The notes under the pieces: model-generated | The model's input: the letters and a program-made list of their open reading frames with translations, nothing else | Databases searched by the model: none | Told to the model about the DNA's origin: nothing | Shown: piece by piece, positions 20,625-49,128 of the stretch | Layout of the letters: each line of letters opens with the position of its first letter | Position numbering within the stretch: the stretch's first letter is position 1 | Translations under genes and position numbers: made by a program | NCBI RefSeq assembly: GCF_054482595.1 | Contig: NZ_CM137008.1 | Strand: one strand, 5' to 3' | Length of the DNA: 64,000 nucleotides

Positions 20625-20705
20625 GGATAGCGCCCGATGCGCAAGCGTATCGGGCTACTCTTATGGAGGCCGGATAAGACGCGGCCAGCGTCGCATCCGG
20701 CAATC
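20625..20705. repeat. REP/BIME elements between convergent ttcA and dbpA
   Basis: ggccggataagacgcg and gcgtcgcatccggcaat match REP consensus. Confidence 0.6.
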
Positions 20706-35591: not shown

Positions 35592-37205
35592 TCAATGCTT
35601 CACAATATACATAGTCCGGCTGTACGCCACATCTTCCGGGTTATTAATGGGATAACCTTTCAGCCACGGCTTGATTAATCGTCCATTGGTATATTGATAA
35701 ATTGGTGCAATCGGTGCTTGCTCCATGAGGATTTTTTCTGCCGCGTTGTAATCGGCATTACGCGCTTTAACGGTATTTTCCGTCGATGCCTGGGCCAGAA
35801 CTTTGTCGTATGCCGGATTGTTAAAGCGTGAAATATTTCCTGAATGCGTTGACGTTAATAATGTCAGGAAAGTGGAGGGTTCATTATAATCCCCCACCCA
35901 TGAGGCGCGGATAACATCAAAATTGCCGGTGTTACGGCTATCGATATAGGTTTTCCATTCCTGATTTTGCAATTTAACATCTACGCCAAGGTTCTTTTTC
36001 CACATCGATGCTACAGCAATCGCAATTTTTTGATGGTTTTCTGAAGTGTTATACAAAAGCGTCAGCTTCAGCGGTTTTCGCGGACCATAACCAGCTGCGC
36101 TCAACAAAGTTTTTGCCTGCGCATTCAGTTCTTCCTGACTCATTTGTTCAAACGGCGAAGGTTCCGGCGTAAATCCGGCGGTAACATCTGGTGTAAAATG
36201 CCACGCTGGCTTTTCGCCCGTCCCTAATACTTTTTCGGTCATCAGGCGGCGATCTATCGTCATACTTAATGCCAGACGAACGCGCTGATCTGCCGTCGGC
36301 CCTTTTTGCGTGTTAAACGCATAATAATAGGTCCCGAGCTGCGGCGGCGTATAAACCTGCCCCGGAATATCCTTCAACAGCTTCTGATACATATTTTTCG
36401 GGAAGGATTCGGTGATATCAATATCCCCCGCGAGGTAACGCTTAGTGGCTGCGGATTCCTGATTAATTGGCAGGAAGGTCACTTTTTGCAGTACCGTTTT
36501 GGCGTTATCCCAATAATGGGTATTCGGTACCACGACCAGTTTTTCATTGACTACGCGTTCTTTAAGAACATAAGCGCCATTGCCGATCAGATTTCCGGGT
36601 TTCGTCCACTCTTTACCGCTTTCTACGTTGGCTTTTTGCACCGGGAAGAAGGCAAAGTTAGCGGTTAAATTCACAAACCACGGCAACGGTTTATCAAGCT
36701 GAATTTTCAAGGTATGGGCATCAACTGCGGTGACGCCAAGCTGGTCAGGCGTAGCTTTACCATCAATAATCGCCTGTGCGTTGTTGATTCCCGCCAGCGC
36801 GGCAAACCATGCAAATGGCGATAGCGTTTTCGGGTCCACCAGACGTTGCCAGCTGTAGACAAAATCTTGCGCCGTTACCGGTGTGCCATCCGCCCATTTT
36901 GCGTTATCGCGCAGGGTAAAAGTCCAGATACGGTTGTCATTACTTTTCCACTGAGTCGCAACGCCGGGGACAATCTCCCCTTTCTCGTTCTGATTCACCA
37001 GTCCTTCAAACAGATCGCGAATGACCTGAATCTCTGGCAGGCCCACGGCTTTAGCGGGATCCAGCGACGCAGGCTCATCTTTAATGTGGCGCACCAGCTC
37101 CTGCTTCTCTGCCAGTACTGTGCCGCTCGGAACTTCTGCAGCATACGAAAGAGAAATGCTGCTGACCAACAGCGCACAACACGTGACTGAAACAGAGTGC
37201 TTCAT
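35592..37205 (-). CDS. mppA: Periplasmic murein tripeptide-binding protein (OppA paralog)
   Basis: ORF track 35592..37226; start at MKHSVSVTCCALLVSSISLSYA gives 537 aa; SBP family 5. Confidence 0.9.
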   Translation of the reverse strand: MKHSVSVTCCALLVSSISLSYAAEVPSGTVLAEKQELVRHIKDEPASLDPAKAVGLPEIQVIRDLFEGLVNQNEKGEIVPGVATQWKSNDNRIWTFTLRDNAKWADGTPVTAQDFVYSWQRLVDPKTLSPFAWFAALAGINNAQAIIDGKATPDQLGVTAVDAHTLKIQLDKPLPWFVNLTANFAFFPVQKANVESGKEWTKPGNLIGNGAYVLKERVVNEKLVVVPNTHYWDNAKTVLQKVTFLPINQESAATKRYLAGDIDITESFPKNMYQKLLKDIPGQVYTPPQLGTYYYAFNTQKGPTADQRVRLALSMTIDRRLMTEKVLGTGEKPAWHFTPDVTAGFTPEPSPFEQMSQEELNAQAKTLLSAAGYGPRKPLKLTLLYNTSENHQKIAIAVASMWKKNLGVDVKLQNQEWKTYIDSRNTGNFDVIRASWVGDYNEPSTFLTLLTSTHSGNISRFNNPAYDKVLAQASTENTVKARNADYNAAEKILMEQAPIAPIYQYTNGRLIKPWLKGYPINNPEDVAYSRTMYIVKH

Positions 37206-37262
37206 AAGTTTCCCTCTAACCGACATTAAAATTGATGCGTAATTATTTGTTTCGCCTTAAAG

Positions 37263-37298
37263 AAATGCAAACAACTTCCATCAAAAAAGTGACACAGG
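37263..37298. repeat. 36-bp conserved motif, copy A (mppA upstream)
   Basis: aaATGCAAACAACTTCCatCAAAAAAGTGAcACAgGA; second copy at 41271..41307 differs at about 3 positions. Confidence 0.6.
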
Positions 37299-37541
37299 AA
37301 GCATAAAATGTTTTATGTATCAATATATTAAATCAGATTTAGTGTAAATAATCGACGCCAAAATGCGGTAAAGCACATAGAACACCGAACACTACATTCA
37401 GGCTTCGCACGTTCAAACCAGTTTTCGGTATCATAATCAGCATCTGTCGCCATTGTACGAAGAATAAAAAATAACCAAAACGTTGATAGGAACTGAGAAT
37501 ACGTTAAGAGAGAAATTAAATTAATGTATCAGCAAGTAGTG

Positions 37542-38441
37542 CTAAACAGCACCTTTATACTTCAGCCTATCTATAAATAATGAGAATGCCGAGCCAGCAT
37601 GTCGACGGTGTGGATAGTACAGGTGATAACCGGGTAAATCTGGTGTGAATTTATCCAAAACACGTATCAGTTTTTTTTCTTTAATAGCCCGCTCAACCTG
37701 ATCATAAGGTAGATACGCCAATCCATGCCCATCAATTGCAGCATCAATGATCAGGTCTATCGTATTCAGTAAAAGCTGACCTTCCATGCGAACACGAACT
37801 TCACGTCCACCGCGTATTAATCTCCAGCGATTTGCTGTACCCGATGTGGGAAGATACAAATTAATTGCCTGATGATCTATTAATTGTGACACTGACGTTG
37901 GAACACTTCGGCGAGAAAAATAATCCGGTGAGCCAACAATAGCCATTGGTATATCTGGCCCGATTCGAATGGCGATCATATCTTTATCCATCTCCCCACC
38001 CAGACGGACGCCTGCATCAAAACGTTCAGAAACGACATCGGTCAAACCATAATCAATGGTGAGCTGAATATCAATTTCAGGATGCGATTTCAGGAATGTG
38101 CGCATTGCTGGTAACAATATCGTTTTTGCTGCATGTTCTACAGTAGTAATACGTATTGTCCCGGATGGGCGGTTCTGCAGCTCGCTCAGGGATGCCAGGG
38201 CTGAATCTATGTCATGCAACATAGGGCCAAGAACAGACAAAAGATGCTCGCCCGCTTCAGTTGGAACAACGCTGCGCGTGGTTCGCGTCAGAAGCCGCAA
38301 TCCCAATCGTTCTTCTATACGACGCACTATCTGGCTTAAAGCTGACTGCGCCATGCTCAGGCGGGCTGCTGCACGAGTGAAGCTACGCTCCTCTGCAACG
38401 ACGACAAACGCCATCAGATCAGCGATTTCTTCACGCTTCAT
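37542..38441 (-). CDS. pgrR: LysR-family regulator PgrR
   Basis: 299 aa; N-terminal HTH; divergent from ycjY. Confidence 0.85.
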   Translation of the reverse strand: MKREEIADLMAFVVVAEERSFTRAAARLSMAQSALSQIVRRIEERLGLRLLTRTTRSVVPTEAGEHLLSVLGPMLHDIDSALASLSELQNRPSGTIRITTVEHAAKTILLPAMRTFLKSHPEIDIQLTIDYGLTDVVSERFDAGVRLGGEMDKDMIAIRIGPDIPMAIVGSPDYFSRRSVPTSVSQLIDHQAINLYLPTSGTANRWRLIRGGREVRVRMEGQLLLNTIDLIIDAAIDGHGLAYLPYDQVERAIKEKKLIRVLDKFTPDLPGYHLYYPHRRHAGSAFSLFIDRLKYKGAV

Positions 38442-38578
38442 TCAGTATCTCCATGCAATCTATTAATCATTTAAATGATAGGTCTAATCATGATTTTGGG
38501 TCTAATCAACTTAATGATCAATATCTATAGTGATATCACCAACCGTTAAAACGAACCGACAACTCCATGAGGAACGGA

Positions 38579-39499
38579 ATGATGAATAATAAAGTCAGCT
38601 TCACTAACAGCAATAATCCAACCATCTCTTTGTCTGCAGTGATCTATTTCCCTCCAAAATTTGATGAAACCCGTCAGTATCAGGCAATTGTGGTATCTCA
38701 CCCAGGTGGGGGCGTTAAAGAACAAACGGCCGGAACCTATGCCAAAAAACTGGCGGAAAAGGGATTTGTCACTATTGCTTATGACGCATCTTATCAAGGT
38801 GAAAGTGGCGGCGAGCCGCGTCAGTTAGAAAACCCATACATTCGTACTGAAGACATCAGTGCCGTGATTGATTACCTGACAACGCTTTCTTATGTCGACA
38901 ATACCCGAATTGGTGCGATGGGAATTTGTGCCGGTGCAGGATATACAGCCAATGCTGCAATTCAGGATCGCCGCATCAAGGCCATCGGTACCGTTAGTGC
39001 GGTCAATATTGGTTCGATGTTCCGTAATGGTTGGGAAAACAATGTGAAATCTATTGATGCCCTGCCATACGTTGAAGCGGGTTCAAACGCCCGAACCAGC
39101 GATATTAGCAGCGGAGAATATGCCGTTATGCCACTGGCACCAATGAAGGAGTCCGATGCGCCGAACGAAGAACTGCGTCAGGCCTGGGAGTATTACCACA
39201 CCCCTCGCGCGCAGTATCCAACAGCACCGGGTTACGCTACTTTGCGCAGCCTTAACCAGATTATTACCTATGATGCTTACCATATGGCGGAAGTGTACCT
39301 GACTCAGCCGATGCAGATTGTGGCGGGCAGCCAGGCAGGGAGCAAATGGATGAGTGACGACCTGTACGATCGGGCATCAAGCCAGGATAAACGCTATCAC
39401 ATTGTTGAAGGCGCAAACCATATGGATCTTTATGACGGCAAAGCCTATGTGGCTGAAGCAATTTCAGTATTAGCTCCGTTCTTTGAGGAAACTCTGTAA
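38579..39499 (+). CDS. ycjY: Alpha/beta hydrolase with Cys nucleophile motif (dienelactone-hydrolase-like)
   Basis: ORF track 38567..39499; start at MMNNK (GAGG 6 nt upstream) gives 306 aa; GICAG nucleophile-elbow motif. Confidence 0.85.
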   Translation: MMNNKVSFTNSNNPTISLSAVIYFPPKFDETRQYQAIVVSHPGGGVKEQTAGTYAKKLAEKGFVTIAYDASYQGESGGEPRQLENPYIRTEDISAVIDYLTTLSYVDNTRIGAMGICAGAGYTANAAIQDRRIKAIGTVSAVNIGSMFRNGWENNVKSIDALPYVEAGSNARTSDISSGEYAVMPLAPMKESDAPNEELRQAWEYYHTPRAQYPTAPGYATLRSLNQIITYDAYHMAEVYLTQPMQIVAGSQAGSKWMSDDLYDRASSQDKRYHIVEGANHMDLYDGKAYVAEAISVLAPFFEETL

Positions 39500-40431
39500 T
39501 GAAACATATTCAAATCCGCAATAGTGATATGGCCTGGCATATTGCTGCCAATATTCAGTTTCCACCAAATTTTGATGAGTCAAAACAGTATCCGGCGATT
39601 ATCAGCGTCCATCCTTTTGGCAGTTGTAAGGAGCAGACGTCTGGCAATATCTATGGCAAAGCATTGGCTGAAAAAGGCTATCTCGTTCTCGCTTATGACG
39701 CCAGTTTCCAGGGAGAATCTGGTGGGGAGCCTCGCTGGATAGAAGATCCGACACAGCGCGTAGAGGATATTAGCCGTGTTATCGATTATGCAGTAACTCT
39801 GCCATATGTTAATGCTGAACGTATTGGCGTGCTGGGAGTGTGTGGGGGTGGTGGCTATGCCATTAATGCCGCGCTGACAGAAAAACGAATTAAAGCAGTA
39901 GTGAGTATTACGGGTGTTAATATCGGGCGTCTTTTTCGGGAAGGTTTCAGCAATTACGATCCGATTGGCGCATTGAATGCAATGGCGTCGCAACGAACCA
40001 AAGAGGCTCGTGGTGGAGAATTACAGATCAACGAATTACTTCCCGCCAGCCTGGATGCAGCAAAATCCCATGGACTGACCGAACGCGATGTTTATGAAGC
40101 AACTGACTACTATAAAACACCACGCGGGCAACAACCGGGAGGTGCGACAAAAATGTTGTTCTCACATGCACAGAAAACGCTGGCCTGGGATGCCTTCGCA
40201 TTTACTGAAGTGTTACTGACTCAGCCGGTGATGGTAGTAGTTGGTGAAAAAGTCGGTGCCTTCGGTGCTTATCGTGATGGACTGGAAGTCTATGGCCGGG
40301 CGATGGTTTCGCAGGATCGTCAGTTAGTTTCATTACCCGATTTCTCACATTATGAACTGTATGACAAACCGGAAGCAGTTCAGGAGACGCTGGAAAAAGT
40401 TATTCCTTTTTTCAACACCCATCTGGGATAA
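39499..40431 (+). CDS. ymjD: Second alpha/beta hydrolase, paralog of ycjY (full-length counterpart of K-12 remnant ymjD)
   Basis: 310 aa; alignable with YcjY along its length (shared FPP.FDE..QY, LAYDAS.QGESGGEPR, VIDY); GVCGG motif; start overlaps ycjY stop. Confidence 0.7.
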   Translation: MKHIQIRNSDMAWHIAANIQFPPNFDESKQYPAIISVHPFGSCKEQTSGNIYGKALAEKGYLVLAYDASFQGESGGEPRWIEDPTQRVEDISRVIDYAVTLPYVNAERIGVLGVCGGGGYAINAALTEKRIKAVVSITGVNIGRLFREGFSNYDPIGALNAMASQRTKEARGGELQINELLPASLDAAKSHGLTERDVYEATDYYKTPRGQQPGGATKMLFSHAQKTLAWDAFAFTEVLLTQPVMVVVGEKVGAFGAYRDGLEVYGRAMVSQDRQLVSLPDFSHYELYDKPEAVQETLEKVIPFFNTHLG

Positions 40432-40448
40432 GTTTCATGAGAAATATT

Positions 40449-41087
40449 ATGAAAAATGTACTGATTCTTGGTGCTGGCGGTCAGATAGCCCGCCATGTGA
40501 TTAATCAACTGGCAGATAAACAAACCATTAAACAAACTTTATTTGCCCGTCAGCCAGCAAAAATCCACAAACCCTATCCAACTAATAGCAAGATTATTAT
40601 GGGAGATGTACTGAATCATGCAGCACTGAAGCAGGCCATGCAGGGACAGGACGTTGTGTATGCCAACCTTACGGGGGAAGATTTAGATATTCAGGCAAAT
40701 TCAGTGATCGCTGCGATGAAAGCCTGTGATGTTAAACGTCTGATCTTTGTTCTTTCCCTCGGTATTTATGATGAAGTTCCAGGAAAATTTGGCGAATGGA
40801 ATAATGCAGTTATTGGTGAGCCCCTAAAACCATTCCGCAGGGCTGCGGATGCAATTGAGGCTTCTGGACTGGAATATACAATTCTTCGCCCTGCCTGGCT
40901 GACTGATGAAGATATTATTGATTATGAGCTTACCTCACGCAATGAACCATTCAAAGGTACGATCGTATCACGTAAGAGTGTCGCAGCATTAATCACAGAT
41001 ATCATCGATAAACCTGAGAAACACATTGGTGATAATATAGGTATCAATCAACCCGTGACTGATGGTGACAAGCCATTATTCATTTAA
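40449..41087 (+). CDS. ymjC: NAD(P)-binding Rossmann-fold protein (NmrA/atypical SDR-like), intact
   Basis: ORF track 40437..41087; MKNVLILGAGGQIARH N-terminal dinucleotide-binding motif; 212 aa from this start. Confidence 0.7.
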   Translation: MKNVLILGAGGQIARHVINQLADKQTIKQTLFARQPAKIHKPYPTNSKIIMGDVLNHAALKQAMQGQDVVYANLTGEDLDIQANSVIAAMKACDVKRLIFVLSLGIYDEVPGKFGEWNNAVIGEPLKPFRRAADAIEASGLEYTILRPAWLTDEDIIDYELTSRNEPFKGTIVSRKSVAALITDIIDKPEKHIGDNIGINQPVTDGDKPLFI

Positions 41088-41270
41088 ATCAATTACATAG
41101 TTACCATCGTAATGTACTATGTGCAGTACGATTTATTAAACTTATTAAGGTGAACTGATCAATCCGATGCGATTAACATGTGTAGAACCAGTAAGAATAA
41201 AATACGCCATGTATATAACATTACGACTTACATCTAAGTCAGCATAATTCTAATATCTGCACATCAATAA

Positions 41271-41307
41271 AAATGCAAACAACTTCCGGCAAAAAAGTGA
41301 TACAAGA
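41271..41307. repeat. 36-bp conserved motif, copy B (mpaA upstream)
   Basis: aaATGCAAACAACTTCCggCAAAAAAGTGAtACAaGA; about 90-125 nt upstream of the mpaA start. Confidence 0.6.
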
Positions 41308-41395
41308 TCGATGACATAGCGTTGAAGAAAAGGATTTGATAATCCGCAAAATTTGCACAACACTGCCTGTAATACTTCCTGAACCAGAGACGATC

Positions 41396-42124
41396 ATGAC
41401 CGTAAACCGCCCACGCGCCGAACGCGGCGCATTTCCGCCCGGAACAGAACATTACGGACGTTCATTATTGGGCGCGCCGTTAATCTGGTTTCCGGCCACT
41501 GCAGCCAGTCGCGAAAGTGGTTTGATTCTGGCTGGCACTCACGGTGATGAAAACTCTTCGGTCGTCACGCTCTCCTGTGCTCTGCGGACTTTGACACCTT
41601 CTTTGCGCCGCCATCATGTGGTGCTGTGTGTGAATCCTGACGGCTGCCAGCTGGGGTTACGGGCCAATGCTAATGGTGTGGATTTAAACAGAAACTTTCC
41701 GGCGGCGAACTGGAAGGAAGGTGAAACGGTTTATCGCTGGAACAGCGCCGCTGAAGAACGTGATGTCGTATTACTGACAGGTGACAAACCTGGCTCCGAA
41801 CCTGAAACCCAGGCGCTGTGCCAGCTTATACACCGCATTCAACCTGCCTGGGTGGTCTCATTCCACGATCCACTGGCCTGTATTGAAGATCCCAGACACA
41901 GCGAATTAGGCGAATGGCTGGCCCAGGCGTTTGAATTGCCTCTGGTAACCAGCGTCGGTTATGAAACGCCTGGCTCTTTCGGCAGTTGGTGTGCAGATCT
42001 CAACTTGCATTGCATCACCGCAGAGTTTCCGCCCATCTCCTCCGACGAAGCCAGCGAAAAATATCTCTTTGCGATGGCAAACTTGCTGCGCTGGCATCCT
42101 AAAGATGCAATTCGCCCGTCGTGA
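41396..42124 (+). CDS. mpaA: Murein peptide amidase A (M14 gamma-D-Glu-mDAP amidase)
   Basis: ORF track 41336..42124; start at MTVNRPRAERG gives 242 aa; HGDE zinc-ligand motif. Confidence 0.85.
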   Translation: MTVNRPRAERGAFPPGTEHYGRSLLGAPLIWFPATAASRESGLILAGTHGDENSSVVTLSCALRTLTPSLRRHHVVLCVNPDGCQLGLRANANGVDLNRNFPAANWKEGETVYRWNSAAEERDVVLLTGDKPGSEPETQALCQLIHRIQPAWVVSFHDPLACIEDPRHSELGEWLAQAFELPLVTSVGYETPGSFGSWCADLNLHCITAEFPPISSDEASEKYLFAMANLLRWHPKDAIRPS

Positions 42125-49044: not shown

Positions 49045-49128
49045 GCCTGAATGCCGGATGCGATGCTAGCGCATCTTATCCGGCCTACATTTATAGATCG
49101 GATAAAGTACTCGCGCCGCATCCGGCAA
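49045..49128. repeat. REP/BIME elements between ycjW and ompG
   Basis: atgccggatgcg...cttatccggcctaca and gcgccgcatccggcaat match REP consensus in opposed orientations. Confidence 0.6.

Follow-up and report, generated by a model that had tools for sequence, protein, structure and literature searches.

Genomic islets acquired by horizontal transfer can be bracketed by direct repeats, with two copies of recipient sequence on either side of the foreign DNA, and recombination between the copies deletes the insert precisely and leaves one copy, which is sometimes a hybrid. Transposons leave target-site duplications of 2–14 bp and carry terminal inverted repeats and a transposase. Here we describe an E. 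coli locus, between the genes encoding a murein tripeptide binding protein (mppA) and a murein tripeptide amidase (mpaA), that resembles a repeat-flanked islet both in its structure and in the way it is lost. It is unlike such islets in having no integrase, transposase, tRNA target or terminal inverted repeat, in the length of its repeat (30–37 bp, longer than transposon target duplications), and in that the duplicated piece would be the core of two back-to-back promoters. The locus can also be set beside other divergent bacterial promoter regions, which it resembles in its undivided form, where the two starts would lie ~70 bp apart with -35 zones that overlap by ~2 bp, whereas in most E. coli this unit is split by 4 kb and its middle is duplicated.

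In published work ycjY, ymjD, ymjC and mpaA are treated as one operon repressed by PgrR (Shimada et al. 2013, as cited in PMC5934670). The locus analyzed here has the same genes on the same strand, and read-through into mpaA is plausible. It departs from the operon model in that mpaA, there the last gene, would here also retain the promoter it had before the insertion, and in that the regulator and the first three genes appear as a portable module of an origin unrelated to mppA and mpaA. We consider it very probable that the repeat is the centre of the mppA/mpaA promoter region, duplicated when this cassette was inserted, and that the copy next to mpaA is the core of the mpaA promoter.

A direct repeat in a divided mppA-mpaA spacer

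The window, the whole stretch of 64,000 nt that was analyzed, is from E. coli and is 100% identical to strain KSC207 across 37100–41500. The RefSeq annotation gives the local gene order as mppA (-), pgrR (-), ycjY (+), a second alpha/beta hydrolase (+), an SDR-family oxidoreductase (+), mpaA (+), ycjG (-), tpx (+) and tyrR (-). The genes, the repeat and the segment between its copies are as follows.

35592..37205, minus strand: mppA, murein tripeptide binding protein, the left gene of the ancestral divergent pair (RefSeq annotation of KSC207; tblastn)
37263..37299: copy A of the repeat, the mppA-side copy of the putatively duplicated centre of the ancestral spacer
37300..41270: insert of 3,971 bp, consisting of a 242-bp non-coding arm, pgrR, ycjY, the second hydrolase, the SDR gene and a 183-bp non-coding arm
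37542..38441, minus strand: pgrR, LysR-type regulator, within the insert (annotation)
38579–39499, plus strand: ycjY (annotation)
39499–40431, plus strand: second alpha/beta hydrolase (annotation)
40449–41087, plus strand: SDR-family oxidoreductase, intact here and reduced in K-12 to the ymjC remnant (annotation)
41088..41395: gap of 308 bp, of which 41088–41270 is the right arm of the insert and 41271–41395 the ancestral mpaA-side half-spacer
41271..41307, plus strand: copy B of the repeat, spanning -42 to -6 with respect to the mapped start and probably forming the mpaA promoter core
41396..42124, plus strand: mpaA, murein tripeptide amidase (annotation; the RefSeq start is the ATG at 41396)

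An earlier note on this DNA, made from the sequence alone, had placed the second copy of a 36-bp motif in a 308-bp gap between ycjY and mpaA. The gap is real, running from a stop at 41087 to the mpaA ATG at 41396, but the gene before it is the SDR oxidoreductase, ycjY lying two genes further upstream. The repeat is real as well, with its partner at 37263–37299, and is 37 nt rather than 36 nt long. At the far end of mpaA, that gene and ycjG are convergent with coding ends that overlap by 26 bp (window 42099–42124); a 2025 paper (PMC12288877) classes the E. coli ycjG-mpaA pair among convergent excludons and mpaA-ycjG-tpx among non-contiguous operons.

Copy B has the sequence AAATGCAAACAACTTCCGGCAAAAAAGTGATACAAGA (37 nt). 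The two copies are in direct orientation, are identical at 33 of 37 positions and lie 4,008 bp apart from start to start; copy A is the sole partner in the window, and a search of the window for the motif with three mismatches allowed returned copy B alone. By chance one would expect ~6e-7 such pairs per 64-kb window and ~2e-9 between the two intergenic regions, and an alignment of these two regions revealed no similarity outside the repeat. The copies differ at motif positions 18, 19, 31 and 35. Their final 7 bp match at only five of seven positions (CACAGGA vs TACAAGA) and may agree by chance, in which case the original duplication was of 30 bp instead of 37. Both copies are present in nearly all of 5,418 complete E. 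coli genomes, in which the median number of places is two.

Comparison with other genera indicates where the repeat came from. Among the fetched loci encoding MpaA homologues, mppA (-) and mpaA (+) are adjacent and divergent in six genera, with a spacer of 176–249 bp (Citrobacter, 184 bp; Enterobacter, 185 bp; Klebsiella, 189 bp; Salmonella, 189 bp; Pseudocitrobacter, 176 bp; Cronobacter, 249 bp), and in Serratia they are divergent too, with a small ORF between them. These undivided spacers contain the motif region a single time. When window positions 37206–37299 and 41308–41395 are joined, the result is a sequence of 182 bp that aligns end to end with the undivided spacers. Since the two half-spacers with one copy of the motif thus make up an undivided spacer, the repeats represent the middle of a single ancestral spacer in duplicate, and the 3,971 bp that they flank at 37300–41270 are therefore an insert. 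The duplicated segment extends from the predicted mppA -35 to the mpaA -10.

Repeats of other kinds lie elsewhere in the window. An ORF of 1,977 aa at 2191–8124 (-) contains, near its start (window 7378–7842), ~11–15 tandem copies of a 30-bp unit encoding a 10-residue repeat, and its product is probably a large surface or autotransporter-type protein. At 20663–20705 and 49049–49090, a GC-rich sequence of the form ...GCCGGATAAG...GCATCCGGCA... recurs in both orientations and has the appearance of a REP-type intergenic repeat.

The cassette in E. coli and elsewhere

The insert is missing from the undivided spacer in seven other genera and in ~174 E. coli genomes. Its four-gene module, pgrR-ycjY-hydrolase-SDR, occurs elsewhere at 85–92% amino-acid identity. 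Relatives of PgrR (85–88% identical) with an adjacent ycjY, usually accompanied by both the second hydrolase and the SDR gene, were found in Citrobacter sp., Kluyvera, Pseudocitrobacter, Shimwellia and Serratia, with neither mppA nor mpaA within 10 kb of these loci. The four-gene unit is also carried by conjugative Klebsiella plasmids (~79% nucleotide identity), and more distant versions are found on Rhizobium and Agrobacterium plasmids. On the Klebsiella aerogenes plasmid pC9_001 (4002–7550 of the fetched locus, L028), a conjugative MOBF plasmid, a LysR/hydrolase/hydrolase/SDR module lies between betT and galactonate-catabolism genes, a context that suggests a catabolic role for the module, unrelated to cell-wall recycling.

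Homology to these other cassettes spans the interval from the pgrR stop to the SDR stop, reaching ~70 bp beyond the SDR stop on one plasmid, and the outer non-coding arms of the insert (37300–37541 and roughly 41160–41270) have no homologue in any fetched locus. At seven other loci we found neither flanking direct repeats nor a copy of the motif around the module. A comparison of the two ends of the insert revealed neither direct similarity nor significant terminal inverted repeats, and the annotation of the insert lists pgrR, the two hydrolases and the SDR gene only, so that genes for an integrase, a transposase or a recombinase are absent from it.

Of 5,418 E. coli genomes, 173–174 (~3%) have mppA and mpaA adjacent, with the cassette absent, and the spacer is exactly 182 bp in all four cassette-less genomes that were fetched. 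A crossover between the repeats is predicted to leave a hybrid with the 'AT' of copy A at positions 18–19 joined to the right half of copy B. Such a hybrid occurs at 100% identity in four genomes and with one mismatch in 10 more, and was confirmed in two fetched genomes, one of each class; these 14 genomes point to loss of the cassette through recombination between the repeats. In the remaining ~160 cassette-less genomes the repeat has the base of copy B at each of the four diagnostic positions, which could reflect either a crossover within the first 17 bases, where the copies are identical, or an ancestral empty site. We infer that the direction of the event was insertion followed by secondary losses.

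Several observations bear on the age of the insertion, in a comparison of E. coli with Escherichia sp. E1V33. E1V33 has the cassette and both repeats, and its genes at this locus are well diverged from those of the window (mppA, 90.3% identity; mpaA, 86.5%; ycjG, 85.4%; tyrR, 87.1%). The left arm of its insert has 27 differences over 242 bp (~11%) and is thus as diverged as the native flanks, indicating that the insertion is older than the split between E1V33 and E. coli. The E1V33 pgrR and ycjY genes are 98.0% and 97.2% identical to those of E. coli, vs 85–90% for the flanking core genes, and Escherichia species seem to have exchanged the coding part of the cassette after the insertion. This high identity prompted us to consider a Campbell-type re-integration at the repeat, which we rejected, the left arm being ~11% diverged and the high identity starting at the pgrR stop.

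Deletions have further altered the locus in some strains. K-12 lacks two pieces of the cassette (window 39557–40448 and 40588–41269), leaving ymjD and ymjC remnants (4560–5000 of the fetched K-12 locus, L002), and the second of these deletions ends in an AATA(A) microhomology, ~5 bp short of the left end of copy B. Because it ends so near copy B, the annotated K-12 ymjC ORF crosses the mpaA promoter and ends just past the mapped start. E1V33 shares both deletion junctions of K-12. E. coli NCTC9100 retains copy A alone: a different and larger deletion, extending from within ycjY as far as ycjT, has taken out copy B together with mpaA, ycjG, tpx and tyrR.

A mapped promoter at copy B and a predicted one at copy A

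The positions of the promoter elements considered below are as follows.

37242..37271, minus strand: predicted mppA promoter, with -35 TTTGCA (37266–37271, within copy A), an 18-nt spacer and -10 AATAAT (37242–37247) (consensus scan)
41298..41306, plus strand: extended -10 of the mpaA promoter, with TG at 41298–41299, one nucleotide and TACAAG at 41301–41306 (placed by its spacing to the published start)
41313, plus strand: mpaA transcription start (G), with an 83-nt 5' UTR, equivalent to K-12 NC_000913.2:1388705 (published tables; sequence match to K-12)
41336..41364, plus strand: conserved block in the 5' UTR, TTGATA (41336–41341), 17 nt and AACACT (41359–41364), a candidate second promoter or operator (prediction)

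Two published tables of K-12 transcription start sites, which come from one laboratory and draw on overlapping data and so are not fully independent, list a start for mpaA at NC_000913.2:1388705 (-), with low counts of 20 reads in one (Kim et al. 2012, PMC3415461 Table S1) and 37 reads, under conditions coded 'E' and 'G', in the other (Cho et al. 2014, PMC3923258 Tables S4/S6). The latter source assigns the start to a transcription unit of one gene, 'mpaA', bound by sigma70 and sigma38, and its ChIP regions RNAP_645, SigD_558 and SigS_317 span the mpaA start in K-12 (PMC3923258). The '-50 nt + TSS' string given for this start is AACTAATAAAATGCAAACAACTTCCGGCAAAAAAGTGATACAAGATCGATG (PMC3415461). 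Its last 44 nt are identical to window 41270–41313, and the whole string matches 4732–4682 of the fetched K-12 locus, the start having been measured in a strain in which a deletion replaced the DNA from ~5 bp upstream of copy B. The published start therefore maps to 41313, inside the gap in which the earlier note had looked for a promoter belonging to mpaA itself. That proposal is borne out by this start, by the single-gene transcription unit, by the occupancy of RNA polymerase, sigma70 and sigma38, and by the cassette-less genomes and outgroups: mpaA there has no gene of the same direction ahead of it (seven other genera, ~3% of E. coli), and the same 125 bp must therefore contain its promoter. 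The companion idea, that a second copy of the motif points to regulation, is not supported, as the copy is best explained by insertion.

Extended -10 promoters usually have a poor -35 element, and the T at -7 is highly conserved in -10 hexamers. The mpaA promoter resembles extended -10 (TGn) sigma70/sigma38 promoters in having TG at -15/-14 and a hexamer, TACAAG, at -12 to -7, ending 7 nt before the start (copy B itself ends 6 nt before it), as well as in its poor -35 zone, AACAAC, and its reported occupancy by sigma70 and sigma38. It is unlike them in that TACAAG, a match to the -10 hexamer at four of six positions, has no T at -7; the site was read from sequence together with the published start and ChIP regions. 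With no T at -7, where one is usual, and with a very poor -35, the mpaA promoter would be weak or activator-dependent, to judge from its sequence. The base at the start itself is polymorphic: the window, K-12 and one hybrid allele have G, and the other three fetched cassette-less genomes (L020, L030 and L031) have A at the equivalent position. Further start-site supplements (Cappable-seq, Conway 2014 and Mendoza-Vargas 2009) yielded no start for these genes.

An alignment of eight genera revealed that the TGAtA block at the extended -10 is conserved and that the strongest conservation on the mpaA side of the spacer lies downstream of the mapped start, outside copy B. There, ACAACACT is invariant across the eight genera, and TTGAT and its spacing to AACACT are also conserved, making this the most conserved part of the mppA-mpaA spacer. 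The block at 41336–41364 may be a second promoter or an operator, and the main control element of mpaA might lie outside copy B; the published K-12 tables list no start at this block.

Other candidate elements were considered and set aside. A sigmaE motif is flagged in Cho et al. 2014 (PMC3923258), and AACTT-N16-ACAAG is a loose fit to a sigmaE promoter, but the mpaA start is not listed as bound by sigmaE, whose SELEX peak falls in the ycjY/ycjZ spacer. By eye, the spacing or the half-sites in the motif are unsuited to sigma54, TyrR, PurR or CRP-type sites. An RNA element in the leader was likewise rejected, as no Rfam covariance model came near its gathering score in 37000–41600 and the fold of the 83-nt leader is unremarkable (z-score 0.0).

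At copy A, we infer from sequence that TTTGCA-18-AATAAT serves as the mppA promoter. The same arrangement is predicted in Klebsiella and in cassette-less E. coli, the best-conserved columns on the mppA side of the eight-genus alignment are the block ATTATTTGT and the GCAA core, and a region bound by RNA polymerase and sigma70 in K-12 covers the predicted promoter (PMC3923258). Neither of the two published K-12 tables lists a start for this proximal promoter. Those tables do give a start inside pgrR that is assigned to mppA, with a 489-nt leader and 6 reads, together with starts attributed to ycjY and ymjD, located inside cassette genes or upstream of them; the positions of these starts in the pgrR, ycjY and ymjD areas are 1390762 (+), 1390556 (-) and 1389172 (-) of NC_000913.2.

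Motif positions 31 and 35 correspond to -12 and -8 of the mpaA hexamer, and the outgroups carry the bases of copy B there, whereas copy A has decayed in its mpaA -10 half, from T to C at -12 and from A to G at -8. Copy A has thus lost the half that it did not need. The promoter at copy B need not act alone: a scan of 40900–41500 found no terminator-like site between the SDR gene and mpaA, making read-through from the PgrR-controlled ycjY operon probable, and this read-through probably adds to the output of the mpaA promoter rather than replacing the promoter.

Origin and meaning of the repeat

The sequence of events that we propose would begin with divergent mppA and mpaA genes separated by a region of back-to-back promoters, of which the motif was the central piece. 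A horizontally acquired cassette of 3,971 bp (pgrR, ycjY, the second hydrolase and the SDR gene) would have entered this spacer in an ancestor of Escherichia, and its insertion would have duplicated ~37 bp (at least 30), placing a direct copy at each end of the insert. Both mppA and mpaA would in this way have retained a complete proximal promoter, with copy B supplying a weak -35 zone and the extended -10 (TG-n-TACAAG) for the mpaA start at 41313 and copy A supplying the predicted mppA promoter with its -35 and the sequence upstream of it. The repeats would remain substrates for recombination, a crossover between them removing the cassette precisely and restoring a single spacer of 182 bp. 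Counting against this account, 37 bp far exceeds the usual target duplications of transposons.

Both copies lie upstream of functionally linked genes, and a loose CTT-N9-AAG (T-N11-A-like) arrangement can be read in the motif, as might be expected were the copies operators for one factor, such as the LysR-type PgrR or another regulator of peptidoglycan recycling, selected for co-regulation of mppA and mpaA. We regard this as improbable, because the copies are oriented oppositely relative to their genes and occupy different promoter positions (the -35 and upstream region for mppA, -42 to -6 for mpaA), because the conserved columns fall on promoter hexamers, and because copy A has lost exactly the positions important for the mpaA promoter. 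Moreover, the segment is single in genera without pgrR at this locus and so predates the arrival of PgrR, whose published SELEX targets here are confined to the ycjY/ycjZ spacer. The partial conservation of the segment across genera, which would suit an operator, is equally compatible with duplication by insertion, given that the ancestral segment could hold a factor site. Direct repeats around a horizontally acquired segment that is precisely lost, and whose module is found on conjugative plasmids, might instead be the attL/attR sites or the target-site duplication of a self-mobile, site-specifically integrating element. This is very improbable for an insert annotated without integrase, transposase or recombinase genes and with ends lacking significant terminal inverted repeats; in addition, the module stands at seven other loci without flanking direct repeats or motif, homology to other cassettes ends well short of the repeats, and the E1V33 arm, diverged like the native flanks, argues against recent re-integration at the repeat.

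We give hardly any credence to the view that copy B is an inert relic and that mpaA is transcribed essentially by PgrR-controlled read-through from the ycjY promoter only. The lack of a terminator-like site before mpaA, the treatment of ycjY-ymjD-ymjC-mpaA as one PgrR-repressed operon in the literature, and the weak -10 and -35 of the mapped promoter would all accord with it, yet two tables place a start 6 nt past copy B, with RNA polymerase and sigma factor occupancy and a single-gene transcription unit, and cassette-less E. coli and the outgroups must express mpaA from this DNA. Copy B is, besides, identical in three sequenced E. coli copies and in the copy-B-like cassette-less alleles, whereas copy A has drifted. 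As for a chance match, both intergenic regions are AT-rich, but with ~2e-9 matches expected between them, and with the repeats placed exactly where the split spacer must overlap to rebuild 182 bp, coincidence is virtually impossible.

Duplication of a promoter core by insertion of the cassette remains our preferred reading, and it may be extended, speculatively, to one that joins the origin of the repeats to their present effect. The repeats would then be a standing recombination switch for precise gain and loss of the pgrR cassette, toggling mpaA between its own promoter only and that promoter plus PgrR-controlled read-through; the duplication would have been selected because in no other way could DNA enter the overlapping back-to-back promoters and leave both mppA and mpaA active, and the role of PgrR in recycling would be an accident of where the module landed. 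We consider this extension unlikely, if less so than the alternatives weighed above.

The idea of a regulatory motif shared by mppA and mpaA thus gives way to that of a bidirectional promoter core duplicated by insertion. The repeat is an ordinary insertion scar and not evidence of a new signal or a shared regulator, and the locus represents no new kind of biological system but a fresh instance of an event type already known. A published start site that had gone unremarked, and that in K-12 lies inside the annotated ymjC pseudo-ORF, is now tied to a defined promoter. The natural presence/absence polymorphism of the cassette (~3% of E. coli), with its hybrid junctions, provides isogenic-like material on the dependence of mpaA on the cassette. 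Finally, pgrR and the hydrolase and SDR genes form a portable module that is carried by plasmids and that lies, in other genera, at a distance from cell-wall genes, so that PgrR may owe its name, 'regulator of peptidoglycan recycling', to read-through into mpaA rather than to the native role of the module.
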